Below are positions 1 through 8,219 of a stretch of DNA of 64,000 nucleotides, piece by piece. Location: sequence record NC_014792.1. One strand, 5' to 3'. The translations under genes and the position numbers were made by a program. Under the pieces are notes generated by a model. That model had not been told where the DNA came from and made no database searches. It saw only the letters and a list, made by a program, of their open reading frames with translations. The stretch is from Escherichia phage vB_EcoM_VR7. The first letter of the stretch is position 1; each line of letters begins with the position of its first letter.

Positions 1-189
1 AGCCGGAGCGATTATCATAAAGAAACCCATCTCAATGGGCATCACTCCCTCGATTGCAGCCATAACCGTGGTCATTACCAGACCAACCAAGCCGCCAAGC
101 ATGGCGGTGACAATCCCTAATAATAAATTGGCACCAATATCATATTCAGCCAATTGATAAACATGTGATGCAAGACTAGGCCGTTCCAT
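1..189 (-). CDS. Hypothetical small hydrophobic (membrane) protein, partial (C-terminus beyond window edge)
   Basis: ATG at 189 on minus strand; translation MERPSLASHVYQLAEYDIGANLLLGIVTAMLGGLVGLVMTTVMAAIEG... is strongly hydrophobic; overlaps the stop of the upstream ORF; not in the ORF track because it is truncated. Confidence 0.35.
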   Translation of the reverse strand, partial: MERPSLASHVYQLAEYDIGANLLLGIVTAMLGGLVGLVMTTVMAAIEGVMPIEMGFFMIIAPA

Positions 190-466
190 TACGAATCTCC
201 TTAATAAATTCTTTGGCACATTTAATTTTGTGCTCTTCTTGCAGGGAAACACATTTTTGTTCCCACTCTTTAACTCGCCCACGATATCCTTTATTCATAT
301 GATTTTGATGCCACACATTTATCAATATCATACTCAGGACTGTAATAAAAGGAGCTGCGATTATTAGCGCCCAGGCAACTCCAACACTAATGATATCCAT
401 ATCTCCACAAACAACCATCATTATAACTCCAACGATGCACATGGACAGAGCTCCAAACGCAGGCAT
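176..466 (-). CDS. Hypothetical small membrane protein (start uncertain; alternative ATG at 442 has a GGAG RBS)
   Basis: ORF track 176..550; hydrophobic core CIVGVIMMVVCGDMDIISVGVAWALIIAAPFITVLSMILI; the N-terminal extension overlaps the preceding ORF so an internal start was chosen. Confidence 0.4.
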   Translation of the reverse strand: MPAFGALSMCIVGVIMMVVCGDMDIISVGVAWALIIAAPFITVLSMILINVWHQNHMNKGYRGRVKEWEQKCVSLQEEHKIKCAKEFIKEIRNGTA

Positions 467-476
467 AAGGTCTTTA

Positions 477-683
477 TCAATCTTGTCTGCATATACAAAT
501 TTTACCTGCCAGAGTTGCCAGTTTAGCAGCTTCGCCACGAGTGATACCAAATACTGCCGGGTTAAATGAAATACCTTCAGCTGTCAGACGTTTGAAGAAC
601 ATACGCGCTGCTGATTGCGCTTCAGCTTCAGAAGAGTTGTTTAATGCCAGTTTAACATACTTAACCAGTTTTGAAGTTTTCAT
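477..683 (-). CDS. Hypothetical small early protein (68 aa)
   Basis: ORF track; preceded on the minus strand by an early-promoter cassette (-35 GTGTAC, -10 CATAAT) at 726-755. Confidence 0.5.
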   Translation of the reverse strand: MKTSKLVKYVKLALNNSSEAEAQSAARMFFKRLTAEGISFNPAVFGITRGEAAKLATLAGKICICRQD

Positions 684-725
684 TTTATTATCCCGTTTGT
701 TTATTTGGTAACTCAGTATGGAATC

Positions 726-755
726 ATTATGCCTTAGTTAAATTCCAAAGTACAC
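726..755 (-). promoter_or_regulatory. T4 early-type promoter (-35 GTGTAC, 18-nt spacer, -10 CATAAT) inside a repeated cassette
   Basis: Minus strand reads GTGTAC-N18-CATAAT; cassette ggtaactcagtatggaatcattatg recurs at 1591-1620 and 39411-39440. Confidence 0.5.
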
Positions 756-756
756 A

Positions 757-1053
757 TTAATTTTCAGAAGTTGGGAAATAAACTTCAAAGTCATACATGT
801 TTACTACTGCAGATGCAATTGCTTGATACTGCATACCCAAGAAAGTTTTCTTGTTCTTGCGCCATAAGTTAACCATTTCTGTTTTGATGCATGCCAGAGA
901 ATAGTTGGATGCAGGATACTGTTTGATGATTGCAACAACTTCTTCAGAAGCAGTTTCGCACAATTCATTCAGTTGAGCTTCAATTTTAGCAGAAATGATT
1001 GCTTTGTTTTCTTCTTGAGCTTGGGTAGCGTGCCATGCAGGTGCGTTAAACAT
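757..1053 (-). CDS. Hypothetical small early protein (98 aa)
   Basis: ORF track; own upstream promoter cassette at 1095-1124. Confidence 0.5.
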   Translation of the reverse strand: MFNAPAWHATQAQEENKAIISAKIEAQLNELCETASEEVVAIIKQYPASNYSLACIKTEMVNLWRKNKKTFLGMQYQAIASAVVNMYDFEVYFPTSEN

Positions 1054-1094
1054 TTTATTCTCCAGTGTTTTATTTGGTAACTCAGTATGGGATA

Positions 1095-1124
1095 ATTATA
1101 CACTATCCCACCTGGAAGTAAAAC
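1095..1124 (-). promoter_or_regulatory. T4 early-type promoter (-35 GTTTTAC, -10 TATAAT) with the -10 in the loop of inverted repeat GGGATA/TATCCC
   Basis: Minus strand GTTTTAC-N17-TATAAT; inverted repeat gggata(1089-1094)/tatccc(1104-1109). Confidence 0.5.
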
Positions 1125-1135
1125 ACTTTTCTCAA

Positions 1136-1561
1136 TTATTTTTGAGCTTTGCGGAAGTTAGAAGCATAAGACTGAACAACAGTCTTTTTGATATCATGGG
1201 TAGTAACCAGGACATCAATCAGAGCGCGGCGAGCTGCATTATCATTCATATCAATTTCTGCAAATGCCTGGAAGCAAATGTCACGGGCGTTACCAGATTT
1301 GGACTGGATTTTTTCTTCTTTAACTTCTTCAATTGGGAATTCAATCATTTCAGCTTGGATTAATTCAATGATGGATTCTTTTGACTGTTTGGTGTTTACC
1401 TTCAGTTCAGAATTAAGGGACTTAGCGATGGCAACAATCTGGGTTGAAGTCAGATGGATAAGTGCATCTTCACGAATGCAGATTTCACATACTTCGTCAG
1501 CAACCATTTTGTTAGTGATGCGGGTAACAGAAAATGCAGAGGTCAGGGTCAGAAAGTTCAT
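1136..1561 (-). CDS. Hypothetical early protein (142 aa)
   Basis: ORF track 1136..1642 trimmed to the ATG at 1561 (GGAG RBS); the longer N-terminus would run through the promoter cassette at 1613-1642. Confidence 0.5.
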   Translation of the reverse strand: MNFLTLTSAFSVTRITNKMVADEVCEICIREDALIHLTSTQIVAIAKSLNSELKVNTKQSKESIIELIQAEMIEFPIEEVKEEKIQSKSGNARDICFQAFAEIDMNDNAARRALIDVLVTTHDIKKTVVQSYASNFRKAQK

Positions 1562-1612
1562 TTTATTTCTCCAAAGTTTTGTTTGATTCAGTGTGTAACT
1601 CAGTATGGAATC

Positions 1613-1642
1613 ATTATGCACCCGGTCAATCCGGATGTACAC
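1613..1642 (-). promoter_or_regulatory. T4 early-type promoter (-35 GTGTAC, -10 CATAAT)
   Basis: Minus strand GTGTAC-N18-CATAAT; same cassette family as 726-755. Confidence 0.5.
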
Positions 1643-1679
1643 TACTTTTTGAAGAAAATTTCAAATTTATTCGGGGTAT

Positions 1680-1708
1680 AAAAAAGCCCCAACCTTTCGG
1701 AAGGGGCT
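1680..1708 (-). terminator. Rho-independent terminator (minus strand)
   Basis: Minus strand AGCCCC-loop-GGGGCT followed by TTTTT. Confidence 0.6.
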
Positions 1709-1710
1709 AA

Positions 1711-1990
1711 GCCTTGCGGCAACCTTGTCGGGGTTCCACCTGCTAGGCAAGTGTTTGTACGAAACGCCGGGATTCGAACCAGGTTATTAAGTAGTTGACG
1801 CTACTAAATATTTTTAAAAGGCCATATCTCGACCATATCCGAACGTTCCGTCAAAAACGCTACTCGGCTTACGGCAAAGATATTTCCTCGAATCGTTAAT
1901 TAGGTGCGCCGTTTCAGCTGTGATATAAGGGGTCATTAACAAAACATAAAGATTTATTAATGCCGGTCCTTAAACAGGGAACATCAGTCC
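1711..1990 (-). ncRNA. Candidate small stable RNA region downstream of the tRNAs (possible counterpart of T4 species 1/2 RNAs)
   Basis: About 280 nt with no ORF between a protein gene and a terminator, in a tRNA operon; minus strand has a T-loop-like GGTTCGAATCC motif and a possible 7-bp acceptor-like pairing (CGGAACG/CGTTTCG), but no canonical cloverleaf could be folded by eye. Confidence 0.3.
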
Positions 1991-1996
1991 GACGAC

Positions 1997-2551
1997 TTAC
2001 CGGTAGCGACCCGGTTTCTTGTTTGGTATTTCAAATTGCGTAGATTTAGTATCTAATTTTTTAACTATGGAACTTATGTCATGAAAGAAAAACCATTCAC
2101 CATTTATATGGTCCTGATTATAAATGGTGTGCATATATTTTTCAAGTTCTACTGCATCCTGGGAATATCTAAATGATACTATTTTAAAACTTTTAAAAGG
2201 TGAAAATGTATTTGCTGCTATAGCTCTAACATCGGGTTCTATACTTCTTCCTATTTTATAATAATTAGGATTTGTAGTGTCTACCATTATGTATACAAAA
2301 GCTTGTCGATAACTTTTTTCTATATCGAATTCATCTTTAAATTTCAATAGATTTAGAGCAGCCGTTCTACAAAATATTCCCCATATCGACGAGCGTTTAG
2401 CTTCGGTCATCGAAAAGAATTTTTTCTTATCTATGATTTTAAGAAAAGCCACCTTTTCAATTAGTTCTTGTGTTATTTCAAAATTACCATGGTATATTAA
2501 TCCAGCTTTTATAGCCAAATTAATTTGGTCCCAGTCTACATCACTTCTCAT
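1997..2551 (-). CDS. T5orf172 / GIY-YIG-superfamily domain protein (184 aa) in the tRNA island; possible homing-endonuclease-like nuclease
   Basis: C-terminal half carries FVYIMV...NYYKIGRS...R...E...NGEWFFF, resembling the GIY-YIG/T5orf172 signature; occupies the position where T4 has segB in its tRNA cluster. Confidence 0.5.
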   Translation of the reverse strand: MRSDVDWDQINLAIKAGLIYHGNFEITQELIEKVAFLKIIDKKKFFSMTEAKRSSIWGIFCRTAALNLLKFKDEFDIEKSYRQAFVYIMVDTTNPNYYKIGRSIEPDVRAIAANTFSPFKSFKIVSFRYSQDAVELEKYMHTIYNQDHINGEWFFFHDISSIVKKLDTKSTQFEIPNKKPGRYR

Positions 2552-2570
2552 AATATTATTCTCATTAATT

Positions 2571-2647
2571 TGGTCGGGGTGAAAGGATTCTAACCTTTAA
2601 CCTGCGGTTTAGAGGACCGCTACTCTATACAATTGAGTTACACCCCG
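2571..2647 (-). tRNA. tRNA-Arg (anticodon UCU)
   Basis: Minus strand folds as a cloverleaf: acceptor CGGGGTG/CACCCCG, D-stem ACTC/GAGT, anticodon stem GCGGT/ACCGC with loop CCTCTAA (TCT), T-stem AAAGG/CCTTT, encoded 3' CCA. Confidence 0.8.
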
Positions 2648-2651
2648 TGTT

Positions 2652-2726
2652 TGGTGGCCCTTGCTGGTTTCGATCCAGCTACCTATCAGTTATGAGCTGA
2701 CAGCTCTCCCATTGAGCTAAAGGGCC
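2652..2726 (-). tRNA. tRNA with CAU anticodon (Met, or Ile if lysidine-modified)
   Basis: Minus strand cloverleaf: acceptor GGCCCTT/AAGGGCC, D-stem GCTC/GAGC, anticodon stem GTCAG/CTGAT with loop CTCATAA, T-stem GCTGG/CCAGC, encoded CCA. Confidence 0.85.
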
Positions 2727-2733
2727 TTAATTA

Positions 2734-3153
2734 TTAACTTGACCATCCCCAACCTTCGGAAGGACCATCGTAGTGTACACAAATATCAGGTGAAATATTA
2801 AAATTGGCTTCGTCCGAAGAAAAAACACCCAACTTTTTACCAAACTCACTGAAGCAGAATTGTTCGCCGCCCGGAGCCCAAACATCTTCAAATAAAACAG
2901 TGAATAGCCAGCCAGCAATTAAATCTGCATCAAATTCTGTTACACCTGAACACATTTCATATAACTCGTCATCACAGACTGTAGCCACGATATGGGCCAA
3001 ATGACTTTCAGATTTTAACCAGATGCGAATTAAATTACCATCAAAACAATTGTAGTTAATTTCGGATGGCTGGCAGTTATAAAATACTTCTGTAGCGATT
3101 TCTGGATTTTCCCAAGTTTCGTCGTTAAAATTGATAAGAATAGGAGTAATCAT
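2734..3153 (-). CDS. Hypothetical acidic protein (139 aa)
   Basis: ORF track; GAGGA RBS; D/E-rich with few K/R. Confidence 0.5.
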   Translation of the reverse strand: MITPILINFNDETWENPEIATEVFYNCQPSEINYNCFDGNLIRIWLKSESHLAHIVATVCDDELYEMCSGVTEFDADLIAGWLFTVLFEDVWAPGGEQFCFSEFGKKLGVFSSDEANFNISPDICVHYDGPSEGWGWSS

Positions 3154-3265
3154 ATTTTCCTCATTAGTTGATTATTCTATTATGAAAGGCTCTTTGAGGG
3201 AAGAACCTTTGGTAATAGAGGGTACTTATTAATAATAACACACAACTCTTAAAGCATATTACTTG

Positions 3266-3649
3266 TTAACCTTCATCAACAATAGTGTGGGTGTTGGCAT
3301 TAACAATCTGCCACCAGTCAAAACGGGTTAGAACCATAACATGGTTGTTTTCATTTTCTTTAATAATATCACGCAGTTCATCTTCAGTCGCAGCTTTTGC
3401 AATTAAATCTGCATAACCGCCCCGGGGATAATAGCTATCGCCAGCAAAGAGTAAAAAGTTTGTTTTGATATTCTTGAATTCTTCAAGAGTAATAACCGTT
3501 CCAGATGGTTGTTGAACAATATCTACGTAACTATATCCTAATTTCTGGGCATTATCTACCGCTTCAAGCAGGGTGTCATGTGCCCACCCAATTTGACATT
3601 CTGGTTTGTCAGATGGGTTTGCCTGATAATCCGCATACACTTTATACAT
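3266..3649 (-). CDS. Hypothetical protein (128 aa)
   Basis: ORF track 3266..3697 trimmed to the ATG at 3649 with RBS; start abuts the stop of the upstream small ORF. Confidence 0.45.
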   Translation of the reverse strand: MYKVYADYQANPSDKPECQIGWAHDTLLEAVDNAQKLGYSYVDIVQQPSGTVITLEEFKNIKTNFLLFAGDSYYPRGGYADLIAKAATEDELRDIIKENENNHVMVLTRFDWWQIVNANTHTIVDEG

Positions 3650-3650
3650 T

Positions 3651-3836
3651 TTACTCACCTTTAGACATTTTATCCATAACGAAAGAGATTGAACCAATTA
3701 AGAATGCAACTACTAAAGAGATTATATTCTCAGAAGTTGAAAGCATATTCAACATAAAGCCAGCAAACATGCTAAAACCAAAAGCGGTAACAGCAACAAG
3801 GGCAGTAACATTTCTAATTAATTCGCAACGTTTCAT
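3651..3836 (-). CDS. Hypothetical small membrane protein (61 aa)
   Basis: ORF track; hydrophobic segments; own promoter cassette upstream. Confidence 0.4.
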   Translation of the reverse strand: MKRCELIRNVTALVAVTAFGFSMFAGFMLNMLSTSENIISLVVAFLIGSISFVMDKMSKGE

Positions 3837-3864
3837 TTTATTCTCCTCATTAGTTGATGGGATA

Positions 3865-3895
3865 ATTATACACTATCCCATATCTAAAAGTACAC
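3865..3895 (-). promoter_or_regulatory. T4 early-type promoter with the GGGATA/TATCCC stem-loop
   Basis: Minus strand GTGTAC-N19-TATAAT; same cassette as at 1095-1124. Confidence 0.45.
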
Positions 3896-4129
3896 TTATT
3901 TTTTACGGAAAATTGATTTATACTGTTTAGCCCATTTCTCGATAACTTCTGCTGGACCCTGGATAACAAAATAGTCCCCAAACTCTTCACCGCCGAGCTG
4001 ACCGTAATTATCTAAGGCGTCGCGGAGAGTTCCATAAGGCATTTCGCCCATTTTATCTTTCTTGCCGGTGTAAATGAATTGCACTTTAACATCAGCAGTT
4101 TCATTAATAAATTCTTGATAAGTTTTCAT
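3896..4129 (-). CDS. Internal-protein-like protein with capsid-targeting N-terminus MKTYQEFINE (77 aa)
   Basis: N-terminus MKTYQEFINE matches the T4 internal-protein targeting sequence MKTYQEFIAE (gp21 cleavage after I/L-x-E); body is unique. Confidence 0.7.
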   Translation of the reverse strand: MKTYQEFINETADVKVQFIYTGKKDKMGEMPYGTLRDALDNYGQLGGEEFGDYFVIQGPAEVIEKWAKQYKSIFRKK

Positions 4130-4185
4130 GTTGTCTCCAGTAGTTGATGGGATAATTATACTGCAGTTATCCCATCACGTACACT
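4103..4185. repeat. Direct repeat copy A (~80 bp: promoter/stem-loop, RBS and first codons of an internal-protein gene)
   Basis: Near-identical to 4436..4518 by eye. Confidence 0.8.
4155..4184 (-). promoter_or_regulatory. T4 early-type promoter within the GGGATAA/TTATCCC stem-loop cassette
   Basis: Minus strand GTGTAC-N18-TATAAT; inverted repeat gggataa(4149-4155)/ttatccc(4167-4173). Confidence 0.5.
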
Positions 4186-4462
4186 AAATTTTTGTATATT
4201 GTCCAGCTTTAACTTTTTTCAGTTCACGAGGGCTTACCGCGTAAGTGAATGGAGCATTCCAGGAAGAACTGACTTTGTAACCTTTAGTCAACATCATTGC
4301 TGAAACTTTCTTGTTATCAGGACCGTTTTCGCCTTTAACAAGAAACAACTCAAATGCGCCACCATCAACCGGTTTGGCCTTAACCATCAGATGTCCTTTC
4401 AGGTCTTCCAGCATATCCGGGTGACTAATTGATTCGTTAATAAATTCTTGATAAGTTTTCAT
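4184..4462 (-). CDS. Internal-protein-like protein with capsid-targeting N-terminus MKTYQEFINE (92 aa)
   Basis: Same N-terminal decapeptide; unrelated body. Confidence 0.7.
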   Translation of the reverse strand: MKTYQEFINESISHPDMLEDLKGHLMVKAKPVDGGAFELFLVKGENGPDNKKVSAMMLTKGYKVSSSWNAPFTYAVSPRELKKVKAGQYTKI

Positions 4463-4518
4463 GTTGTCTCCAGTAGTTGATGGGATAATTATACTGCAGT
4501 TATCCCATCGTGTACATT
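4436..4518. repeat. Direct repeat copy B (~80 bp promoter/stem-loop/RBS/first-codons cassette)
   Basis: Near-identical to 4103..4185. Confidence 0.8.
4488..4517 (-). promoter_or_regulatory. T4 early-type promoter within the stem-loop cassette
   Basis: Minus strand -10 TATAAT with -35-like ATGTAC 18 nt upstream. Confidence 0.45.
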
Positions 4519-4816
4519 ACATTTTTGAACCGCGAATCACGCCATAAGCTGCGAAGTCGTCAGTGATGTTCTTAGGGGTGTTTTTACCAGTTTCAATATA
4601 TGCGATGCTGGATTTCTGACCAAATGAGGTAATTTTATTATAGTTAGAGTCAAGGAAAGTATAACCATTTTTACGCAGCTGGTCAAAGTCTTCAGCGTCG
4701 CCTTTACCTTTGAAGTCAACCCATTTGTATGTGTTTTTCTTCTGAAGGCCCAGAGGCCAGGTTTTTGCTTCTGCCAGGTAATTATTTTCTACCAAAAATT
4801 CGTGGAGCGTTTGCAT
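4517..4816 (-). CDS. Internal-protein-like protein with N-terminus MQTLHEFLVE (99 aa)
   Basis: Divergent version of the targeting motif ending in L-x-E; unique body. Confidence 0.6.
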   Translation of the reverse strand: MQTLHEFLVENNYLAEAKTWPLGLQKKNTYKWVDFKGKGDAEDFDQLRKNGYTFLDSNYNKITSFGQKSSIAYIETGKNTPKNITDDFAAYGVIRGSKM

Positions 4817-4824
4817 TTGAAATC

Positions 4825-5097
4825 CTATTTTAGATAAATTGCATATTTTTTATAACCAGCTGTCTCATGGCGGAGACCCTTGTCATTGGCAAAACGCTCA
4901 ATGTTATTAATTTGGTTCTGGTCAAGTTCAGAGATGTCAAACGCGAAAAAGTTGCGTTTGTTACCAATTGTTATATGGTCAGTCAAGTCAATGCTATACA
5001 AGTGATTGATATTGTCAATCATAGCTTTGACTGCTTTACTAATTTTTACTTCTTCATTCAGTTGGGACTCGTTGAAAAGTTCATTAAAAGTTTTCAT
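4825..5097 (-). CDS. Internal-protein-like protein with N-terminus MKTFNELFNE (90 aa)
   Basis: Targeting-like N-terminus; 8-bp spacing to the next gene suggests operon expression. Confidence 0.6.
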   Translation of the reverse strand: MKTFNELFNESQLNEEVKISKAVKAMIDNINHLYSIDLTDHITIGNKRNFFAFDISELDQNQINNIERFANDKGLRHETAGYKKYAIYLK

Positions 5098-5105
5098 AAG
5101 AAACC

Positions 5106-5438
5106 TTATTTATACAGTTTAGCCAGTTCTTTACGTCCGCGAGCAGACATAATGAATTGTTCATCACCAATTTTGAAATAAGCCATACCACCGTCAACAG
5201 CGATGCCAATTTCTTTAGTACCTTCTTTGCCTTTCCACTTGCCACCAGATTTTAGGACAGCTTCAACCGCAGCTTTGGAATATTTGGACGTTTGAAAACG
5301 TTCATTACCAATCTGAAAGAAAACACCATCTGCATTTTTGGATAAACCAAATTTCAGAGAGCCTTCACTATCATCAATTGATTTGGTCTCATTGATGGCG
5401 GATTCGGCTAAAAACTCGTTATAAGTCTTGATGTTCAT
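5106..5438 (-). CDS. Internal-protein-like protein with N-terminus MNIKTYNEFLAE (110 aa)
   Basis: ORF track 5106..5471 trimmed to the ATG at 5438 (GGAG RBS); the extension would overlap the promoter; body has two internal repeats (FFQIGNERF / YFKIGDEQF). Confidence 0.6.
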   Translation of the reverse strand: MNIKTYNEFLAESAINETKSIDDSEGSLKFGLSKNADGVFFQIGNERFQTSKYSKAAVEAVLKSGGKWKGKEGTKEIGIAVDGGMAYFKIGDEQFIMSARGRKELAKLYK

Positions 5439-5469
5439 TTTAACTCCGTTTGTTCGTTGGTGTAGGAAC

Positions 5470-5498
5470 ATAATACTGCACCTACACTCATTTGTACA

Positions 5499-5499
<1 letters not shown>
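5470..5499 (-). promoter_or_regulatory. T4 early-type promoter (-35 GTGTAC, -10 TATTAT) within hairpin GTAGG/CCTAC
   Basis: Minus strand GTGTAC-N18-TATTAT; inverted repeat 5462-5466/5481-5485. Confidence 0.45.
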
Positions 5500-6189
<690 letters not shown>

Positions 6190-7547: not shown

Positions 7548-8219
7548 TTATTTTATTAATGTGTTAAGTCTTAGCTTAGTCATAAACGGATAACGTTCCA
7601 ACATTGGCTTTACCCAGTATCGAGGATGCAATTCCTTTTTATATGCTAGGACCAACTCTCGAGCTTGCTCGACGGTATCAACTCCGAAGTTTTTACACAT
7701 TTCTTGCCTATCTTTTTCCCACCGGCGCTTTGATAATTCTGCGTTGACTTTCGTAAATGTATCATTCTTTCGGTTGTGTTTTTTGCCCGTTGTTGGGCTG
7801 TAATGTCTTCCTTTAACGAATCCTTCTGGAACGTCTTCCCACGGAAATAATTTTATCGATTTGACACCATTATTAAAATAAACTTTTCCCGTTTGACTTT
7901 TCGAAATGTTGTTGGCATGTTTACGTCTTAACCAACCAAATAATTTATTGTTATGCCGTTTATGATTTTTTGAATTTTGTGCCATTGTTGTTGCGGCAAA
8001 ACTTAACCCAGGATGTGTGGGATATATTTTAACCAGTAATTGATGCGCGACATAATGTTCTTCGGGTGTTAAATTAACCAGATTATCTGGGTCATTGGAA
8101 CCGCCCATACATTTTGGAATGATGTGATGAGATTCTTTATATGAAATCAGGACCCTGTTACGGGCCCTTTCAATTAACGATGAATATATAAACTGATAAT
8201 TCAAAGTGAATTTCTCCAA
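7548..8219 (-). CDS. HNH homing endonuclease (freestanding), inserted between genes 3 and 2
   Basis: HNH core [30 protein letters not shown]; non-ATG (TTG) start with weak RBS; not present between T4 genes 2 and 3. Confidence 0.75.

Follow-up and report, generated by a model that had tools for sequence, protein, structure and literature searches.

Anti-restriction proteins that mimic DNA (i.e. T7 Ocr, ArdA and T4 Arn) are small, cytoplasmic, expressed early and extremely acidic (isoelectric point, pI, of about 4), and are encoded in variable accessory regions. The colicin D and E5 immunity proteins, ImmD and ImmE5, are also small and acidic and inhibit a nuclease directed at tRNA by posing as its substrate. 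In T4, each of the internal proteins Ip1-Ip3 inhibits a specific GmrSD type IV restriction enzyme (PMC12373910). Hyperplastic regions of T4-type phages contain early promoter/stem-loop elements, termed PeSLs (PMC2839356, PMC4122927), and T5orf172 genes are homing endonuclease genes sitting at boundaries of genetic exchange (PMC10448857). Three small open reading frames (ORFs), termed ORF139, ORF127 and ORF61, were analysed in a stretch of 64,000 nucleotides (nt), here called the window, from Escherichia phage vB_EcoM_VR7 (VR7's own record, NC_014792.1). This phage belongs to the T4-like coliphages (genus Gaprivervirus), and the closest DNA match to the window in the phage collection was VR26 (97%). 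The ORFs are encoded on the minus strand, as are all genes in the region, between the tRNA-Arg/tRNA-Met genes (2571-2726) and the first internal-protein gene (3896-4129), where a first-pass annotation made from the sequence alone had placed them without naming a strand. ORF139 resembles Ocr, ArdA and Arn in the properties listed above, early expression being probable, but no sequence or fold relationship to them was found.

Each ORF is preceded by a GAGG-type ribosome-binding site, matches a PHROG family from end to end (E-values of 5e-84 for ORF139, 4e-53 for ORF127 and 5e-33 for ORF61) and is under purifying selection, with ratios of nonsynonymous to synonymous polymorphism (pN/pS) of 0.07-0.19 in unsaturated comparisons. 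These features indicate that the ORFs are genuine protein genes under selection and not chance ORFs, and the layout places them at the 5' end of the phage tRNA transcription unit. The order of transcription is gp3, gp1, 57A, 57B (Acb1 family), five internal-protein-like genes, ORF61, ORF127, ORF139, tRNA-Met, tRNA-Arg and orf184. None of the three ORFs had a match in sequence searches of Pfam (an older release), NCBIfam, PADLOC or the PDB, and no homology to housekeeping proteins emerged from the library searches, nor was there any sign that the genes are silent. The first-pass term 'uncharacterised' is apt for these libraries, but two of the ORFs are the named T4 genes trna.3 (ORF127; family present in 761 of 50,697 phage records, the collection used for all record counts) and trna.4 (ORF61; 978 records). 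ORF139 is the mildly novel item, the other two being ordinary hyperplastic-region accessory genes of named families.

The acidic protein ORF139 and its exchange module

ORF139 contains 24 acidic (D/E) and four basic (K/R) residues and is the third most acidic protein per residue among the 75 non-overlapping window ORFs used for ORF comparisons, in agreement with the first-pass description of a strongly acidic protein of 139 amino acids (aa). It matched PHROG 25544 over positions 1-139 of 139 (E 4.8e-84), a family whose function is listed as unknown and which was also matched by gp120 of Caulobacter phage Cr30 (E 1.4e-66). The family is rare, with seven clusters among 5.8 billion proteins, and was present in only 13 phage records, namely T4-like phages of Escherichia, Klebsiella, Enterobacter and Serratia together with Cr30 (34% identity). 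Net charge ranges from -12 to -22 and is kept down to 34% identity, this range leaving out one homologue (P0031, -7) that probably has a mis-called N-terminal extension. Counted along the linear sequence, 80% or more of 11 homologues keep an acidic residue at 13 of the 24 acidic positions. The first-pass annotation had pointed to the acidity of ORF139, but conservation is strongest in an aromatic/glycine loop that is not acidic, LFEDVWxPG(G)EQFxFxxFG (residues 87-105), accompanied by N33, R43, Q98, S121 and D123. The invariant polar residues are R43, E89, D90, Q98, S121 and D123. Structure prediction, the check that had been proposed, gave a confident AlphaFold2 (AF2) model with a predicted alpha/beta fold (predicted local distance difference test, pLDDT, 86.7; predicted template-modelling score, pTM, 0.83) that matched no solved structure in the PDB. 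A search of BFVD with the model returned one weak neighbour, an uncharacterised Klebsiella-phage protein.

The genomic contexts of ORF139 were compared between phages. All ten enterobacterial contexts inspected had ORF139 within a tRNA cluster, usually about 10-60 nt away from a tRNA gene on one side or both; it adjoins tRNA-Met(CAT) in four contexts, and in the window tRNA-Met starts 8 nt past the ORF139 stop codon. The Cr30 homologue has no tRNA gene within 3 kb. A nuclease-like gene was present nearby in 9 of 11 contexts inspected, i.e. seven T5orf172 genes (window, VR26, two Klebsiella phages, Enterobacter phage EnC07, Serratia phage 92A1 and locus L009), one Endo-I-like gene (IME341) and one HNH-like gene (locus L010). 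The EnC07 gene (L006 2899-3441) is an unannotated ORF of 180 aa that looks by eye like the Klebsiella-phage T5orf172 nuclease and overlaps the end of the ORF139 homologue; the two genes also overlap in the Klebsiella phages. No recognisable nuclease was found near the homologue in locus L011 or in Cr30. The window copy, orf184, scored 34.7 bits against Pfam MUG113 (cut-off 22.3) and 26.7 bits against T5orf172 (cut-off 20) and is a putative homing endonuclease, cleavage and homing being likewise putative. Nucleases of the orf184 type are encoded in 270 of the phage records, for the most part by T5-like phages in their tRNA regions.

Alignments with VR25 indicate that ORF139, tRNA-Met, tRNA-Arg and the T5orf172 gene were exchanged as a block, because in VR25 a conserved hairpin runs straight into tRNA-Met, at the place where the window and VR26 have ORF139 with its own ribosome-binding site, and because homology with VR25 does not return until the final ~30 nt of orf184, right after the VR25 tRNA-Arg (L012 about 3190-3220). 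A module of ~1.15 kb is replaced in VR25 by a different tRNA-Met/tRNA-Arg pair of ~0.3 kb. The module flanks are 96-97% identical in VR25 and VR20, with query positions 1-674 having no match. This clean insertion/deletion (indel) relative to VR25 bears out the first-pass assignment of the locus to a hyperplastic, plastic region. Exchange of a block with a nuclease gene at its edge fits the observation that nuclease genes occupy exchange boundaries (PMC10448857).

The hairpin lies in the spacer between ORF127 and ORF139 (3176-3219; -17.6 kcal/mol, z -7.1, none of 200 shuffled sequences folding as well). It is identical base for base in VR25 and VR26, stands at the indel junction and marks one boundary of the module. 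The hairpin may be a terminator/attenuator, an RNA processing site or a recombination site, and is called PeSL-like, and not a demonstrated PeSL, because it is without a convincing -35/-10 pair. ORF139 resembles PeSL-bounded or homing-endonuclease-flanked modules (PMC2839356, PMC4122927, PMC10448857) in being an indel among close relatives with a stem-loop and a nuclease gene as its boundaries, but differs from PeSL modules in that a clear promoter pair was not found before ORF139. Between Trna.3 and the hairpin, VR25 encodes gp293 (L012 3576-4055), an unrelated protein of 159 aa (net charge -20, pI 4.18; PHROG 2290, function unknown). The two sites on either side of the hairpin hence hold different, very acidic proteins in sister phages (i.e. 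ORF139 of the VR7 type and VR25 gp293).

In GenBank, the ORF139 homologues of OM386655 (ESCO10) and OR106137 (ValerieMcCarty03) are labelled 'prohead core scaffold protein', and orf184 of ESCO10 is labelled 'head vertex protein'. The scaffold label was considered for ORF139 and rejected, no capsid-targeting sequence and no likeness to any window ORF being found. Both kinds of label appear to be annotation errors.

ORF61, ORF127 and the Y07C domain

ORF61 and ORF127 were identified by similarity and gene order as the orthologues of T4 Trna.4 (P13322; Pfam PF26870 Phage_T4_Y07D) and T4 Trna.3 (Y07C_BPT4, P13323; Pfam PF26894 Phage_T4_Y07C), respectively. These Pfam names were read from the assignments of homologues, the locally scanned release being older and without the PF26894 model. 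ORF61 matched phrog_1692 over its full length (E 4.7e-33), is ~66% identical to Trna.4 of RB14 and RB32, and has counterparts labelled Trna.4 in the VR26 and IME341 records (pN/pS of 0.07 versus IME341). Its hydropathy profile shows two maxima, at about residues 10-30 and 36-56, that predict two transmembrane helices, and the first-pass call of a 61-aa membrane peptide was upheld. ORF127 is 100% identical to VR7 Trna.3, which has a precomputed PF26894 match, as do all homologues; it matched phrog_1411 over residues 1-127 (E 4e-53) and is ~50% identical to the T4 and RB14 proteins. The coordinates first given for ORF127 are correct but the length of 128 aa is not, as the 384 nt include the stop codon and encode 127 aa.

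Both genes are widely conserved among enterobacterial T-even-type phages, and VR26, VR25, RB14 and IME341 share the arrangement of trna.4 followed directly by trna.3, with the internal-protein genes on one side and the tRNA cluster on the other. The start codon of ORF127 lies 1 nt after the ORF61 stop (TAAAATG), a tight junction also present in VR25, RB14 and IME341, indicating that the two genes are translationally coupled. ORF127 and ORF61 agree with T4 Trna.3 and Trna.4 in length, order (internal-protein genes, trna.4, trna.3, tRNAs) and coupling, and differ in nothing essential apart from divergence of the N-terminal half of ORF127. This half is variable and diverged from T4, and the C-terminal domain is nearly invariant. 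No discussion of the function of trna.3 or trna.4 was found in the literature searched. An AF2 model of ORF127 (pLDDT 84.4) contained two beta-beta-alpha-beta-beta halves; an internal duplication is not claimed because the profile-profile comparison of the halves was negative (hhalign probability of 0.06%). ORF127 is a soluble, mildly acidic two-part protein, the C-terminal half of which is the widespread phage domain Y07C.

The first-pass annotation had singled out a segment of ORF127 (LFAGD...GG) as unusual. The segment, LFAGDSYYPRGGYADL at residues 67-82, is a hallmark of the catalogued domain PF26894 and aligns as the signature loop of the C-terminal Y07C domain of ~60 aa (residues 63-127). 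The Y07C signature reads F-x-G-x2-Y-Y-P-x-G-G-x2-D ... (D/E)WWQIV and ends in a C-terminal WW(Q/H)IV strand. Residues F68, G70, Y73, Y74, P75, G77, G78, D81, W112 and W113 were fully or almost fully conserved in sets of 19 and 41 sequences; alignment across Y07C proteins showed conservation of F, G, YYP, GG, D and W, with F, G, GG, D and W as the invariants. A profile search of 1.84 billion representatives yielded 493 cluster representatives at E<=1e-3, with matches all assigned to PF26894, and nearly all of these were stand-alone proteins of 55-100 aa that matched profile positions ~63-126 only. One protein in this search (P0085, a 2031-aa repeat protein) was set aside as a low-complexity false positive. 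Sampled stand-alone genes were located in phage early or replication modules, and no membrane partner was found for them in the unrelated phage contigs sampled. The one domain fusion encountered, with an XRE helix-turn-helix, is too little to support an interpretation. Neither a solved structure by sequence search nor a meaningful fold match was obtained for Y07C or ORF127. The Y07C family is large and has never been studied, and the odd ORF127 motif is its signature. In some T4-like phages (L009 1590-1781; L002 2392-2577), trna.4 and the two-domain trna.3 are separated by an additional Y07C paralogue, which is degenerate and has a single domain (MYAL..W..YYP.).

An early-type promoter candidate (TGTACT-N18-TATAAT) was detected upstream of ORF61, with its -10 box within a stem-loop (3857-3881; -12.4 kcal/mol, z -3.3). 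A 21-mer, GTATAATTATCCCATCAACTA, occurs three times on the minus strand of the window as compared to zero expected occurrences (3851-3871, 4141-4161 and 4474-4494), and each copy is part of a stem-loop that shortly precedes ORF61 or one of two internal-protein genes. The repeated element has the characteristics of a PeSL-like early promoter/stem-loop, its promoter activity being inferred, and such cassettes probably mediate module shuffling. T4 trna.3 has been classed as early at both RNA and protein levels, with the protein quantified, and trna.4 as early at the RNA level (PMC9697503 supplement). Because of this classification and the upstream promoter/stem-loop, the three ORFs are probably expressed early, as the first-pass annotation had anticipated.

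Possible functions of the three proteins

The reading preferred here, tentatively and with clearly less than even confidence, is that the three ORFs encode dispensable early accessory binders, with ORF139 as an inhibitor candidate and a mobile passenger. All three proteins would be made in the first minutes of infection and would act by binding host or defence components and not by catalysis. ORF139, as a compact acidic alpha/beta protein, would be the best inhibitor candidate of the three because of its conserved acidity, compact fold, conserved loop and a locus shared with Acb1/57B and the GmrSD-inhibiting internal proteins. The loop LFEDVWxPGGEQFxFxxFG and the conserved negative surface would fill the site at which a host protein binds nucleic acid, the likeliest target being a nuclease aimed at phage DNA or tRNA, which fits the fixed place of ORF139 among phage tRNA genes. 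Trna.3 would use the YYPxGG/WW loop as a binding site and work with the membrane peptide Trna.4 in T-even phages, and ORF139 would be carried along as a passenger when nuclease activity drives recombination within the tRNA cluster.

The role of ORF139 as an inhibitor of host defence is reasonable but unproven. The more specific idea of a DNA mimic with anti-restriction activity, raised in the first-pass annotation, agrees with the small size and conserved acidity of the protein, but no known mimic fold or sequence family was matched and the idea is put here as a hypothesis with no similarity behind it. ImmD and ImmE5 may offer a parallel, being acidic like ORF139, which is itself genomically tied to tRNA genes, but there is no structural or sequence resemblance and ORF139 is not paired with a tRNase toxin, so the analogy is functional speculation only. 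T4 Ip1-Ip3 are similar to the three ORFs in being immediate neighbours, in having the same repeated promoter/stem-loop and in showing equal variability between relatives, the counter-defence role being that of Ip1-Ip3. In contrast to these, the N-termini of ORF139, ORF127 and ORF61 (MITPILINF, MYKVYADYQ and MKRCELIRN, respectively) are without a prohead-protease capsid-targeting sequence (MKTYQEF..E-like), and the three proteins would hence be made post-infection and not injected. An extension of the inhibitor proposal, in which ORF139 is the first member of a new fold family whose proteins inhibit by mimicking nucleic acids, is a long shot and distinctly improbable. ORF139 would here be an acidic decoy in tRNA clusters that blocks a host nuclease acting on tRNA or modified phage DNA, and replacement tRNAs plus inhibitor would form one mobile package. 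Still less likely is a function of the Y07C domain (invariant YYPxGG...D...WW) as a small-ligand or immune-signal binding module.

Several observations weigh against the binder and inhibitor proposal. Acidity is common in VR7, and 2 of the 75 window ORFs are more acidic per residue than ORF139. The ORF139 model matches no solved DNA/RNA mimic, immunity protein or anti-defence protein, and an active site would be just as good a reading of the conserved aromatic/hydrophobic loop with R43, N33, Q98, S121 and D123. Neither experiment nor homology ties any of the three ORFs to a function, and none of the ORF sequence motifs searched was present in the supplements of a T-even accessory-gene screen. 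Cooperation between Trna.3 and Trna.4 is argued solely from gene order, and there are stand-alone Y07C proteins without a membrane partner. The counter-defence argument from neighbouring genes amounts to guilt by association within one syntenic lineage.

The recurrent proximity of nuclease genes could mean that ORF139 is a partner of the homing-type nuclease, i.e. an acidic factor for inhibition, immunity or timing that covers the DNA-binding surface of the nuclease and spares the phage's own DNA in the manner of barstar or colicin immunity proteins. This explanation is distinctly unlikely. The presence of a nuclease-like gene in most contexts, the gene overlaps in Klebsiella and Enterobacter phages and the joint presence of both genes in VR7 and VR26 and joint absence from VR25 would be expected of such a pair, but the orf184-type nuclease does not need ORF139, given 270 records (mostly T5-like) with the former and 13 with the latter. 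Moreover, the two genes have no fixed order or distance (downstream with overlap, downstream across two tRNAs, or upstream), and neither L011 nor Cr30 has a nuclease that can be recognised in the vicinity. Homing endonuclease genes generally concentrate in tRNA clusters, so that adjacency is expected from location. Free-standing homing endonucleases are not, as a rule, known to require an immunity protein. The invariable location of ORF139 inside tRNA clusters of enterobacterial T4-like phages, with a tRNA directly adjacent in the window, could instead point to a translation or tRNA factor that processes, modifies, charges or protects the co-transcribed phage tRNAs, and the invariant R43, E89, D90, Q98, S121 and D123 are compatible with an active site. 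However, most T4-like phages with tRNA clusters are without ORF139, including VR25 with the same two tRNA species, and the Cr30 homologue is remote from any tRNA gene. A net charge of -20 is also unfavourable for direct RNA binding and no similarity to RNA-modifying folds was found with the ORF139 model, making this role very unlikely.

Trna.4 and Trna.3 might act at the cell envelope, in superinfection exclusion, membrane functions or lysis timing comparable to those of T4 Imm and RI, with Trna.3 as the soluble partner. A conserved two-helix membrane peptide, conserved translational coupling to Trna.3 and early classification of both genes are in keeping with this; nevertheless, no homology to Imm, Sp or RI was found in the libraries searched and Y07C domains are common in phages in which no membrane partner accompanies them, so that an envelope function is regarded as unlikely. 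Finally, the three proteins could be virion or prohead components that extend the adjacent internal-protein cassette, a view to which the ESCO10 and ValerieMcCarty03 labels, the adjoining internal-protein genes and an acidity resembling that of scaffold and core proteins would lend themselves. This was rejected as extremely improbable because none of the three starts with the targeting sequence of the neighbouring internal-protein genes (MKTYQEFI.E or MKTFNELF.E). In addition, no similarity to any other window ORF, head genes included, was detected, PHROG lists the ORF139 family without a function, and the T4 orthologues of ORF61 and ORF127 are early and not late.

If ORF139 or the Y07C domain turned out to inhibit defence, the anti-defence repertoire would gain new folds, and the persistence of protein genes inside phage tRNA clusters would be explained. 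The present value is mainly one of annotation: two 'unknown' ORFs become trna.3 and trna.4, an odd motif becomes a large unstudied domain family, and the acidic ORF139 is mapped as cargo of a precisely bounded exchange module ending in a nuclease gene. The upside lies in the unmatched fold of ORF139 and the unexplored Y07C domain, interest being otherwise modest. VR7 and VR26 with the module, and VR25 and VR20 without it, form a natural pair for function tests.

Feature positions and neighbouring genes

Positions of the three ORFs and associated features in the VR7 window
Feature	Position	Strand	Details
ORF139	2734-3153	minus	139 aa, pI 4.05, net charge -20; PHROG 25544 (VR7 gp149 family)
ORF127 (Trna.3 orthologue)	3266-3649	minus	127 aa, pI 4.5, net charge -10
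ORF61 (Trna.4 orthologue)	3651-3836	minus	61 aa, two predicted hydrophobic helices
Phage_T4_Y07C domain, ORF127 residues 63-127	3269-3463	minus	Profile search, alignment
Early-type promoter candidate upstream of ORF61	3865-3894	minus	TGTACT, 18 nt spacer, TATAAT; activity inferred
Hairpin in ORF127-ORF139 spacer	3176-3219	minus	-17.6 kcal/mol, z -7.1
tRNA-Met(CAT)	2652-2726	minus	ARAGORN; Rfam
tRNA-Arg(TCT)	2571-2647	minus	ARAGORN; Rfam
orf184, T5orf172/MUG113 (GIY-YIG superfamily) putative homing endonuclease	1997-2551	minus	Pfam
Exchange module, ~1.15 kb (ORF139, tRNA-Met, tRNA-Arg and orf184)	2027-3171	minus	Alignments with VR25

Five small genes at 3896-5471 (minus strand) encode proteins that start with MKTYQEFINE, MQTLHEFLVE or MKTFNELFNE, or have an internal MNIKTYNEFLAE. 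From their sequence, these leaders are recognised as capsid-targeting sequences of internal (i.e. injected) proteins. The adjoining homologue of gene 57B (5499-5954, minus strand) has the GenBank label 'RNA ligase', and related copies have Pfam PF23474 Acb1, an anti-CBASS phosphodiesterase family. In T4-type phages Trna.2 is encoded between trna.3 and the tRNAs; VR7 is without trna.2. Two T4 proteins were enriched with the DRT1 defence system, one of them Trna.2 (PMC13275509), which counts towards a counter-defence neighbourhood. A free-standing HNH endonuclease ORF is located between gp3 and gp2 (7548-8219, minus strand), with a Pfam HNH score of 21.4 bits that is exactly at the cut-off, and its VR25 counterpart is labelled MobB-like.

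An Rfam scan of window positions 1-6000 found nothing beyond tRNA-Met and tRNA-Arg, which scored 61-64 bits against the tRNA model. A non-coding stretch at about 1700-1990 (minus strand), without an Rfam match, is ~98% identical to VR25 although the adjoining sequence is swapped. A T-arm like that of a tRNA, GGTTCGAATCCCGG, and a hairpin resembling a terminator, GCCCCTTCCGAAAGGTTGGGGCTTTTTT, lie within it. This stretch may be the counterpart of the T4 stable RNAs C and D, located after tRNA-Arg.

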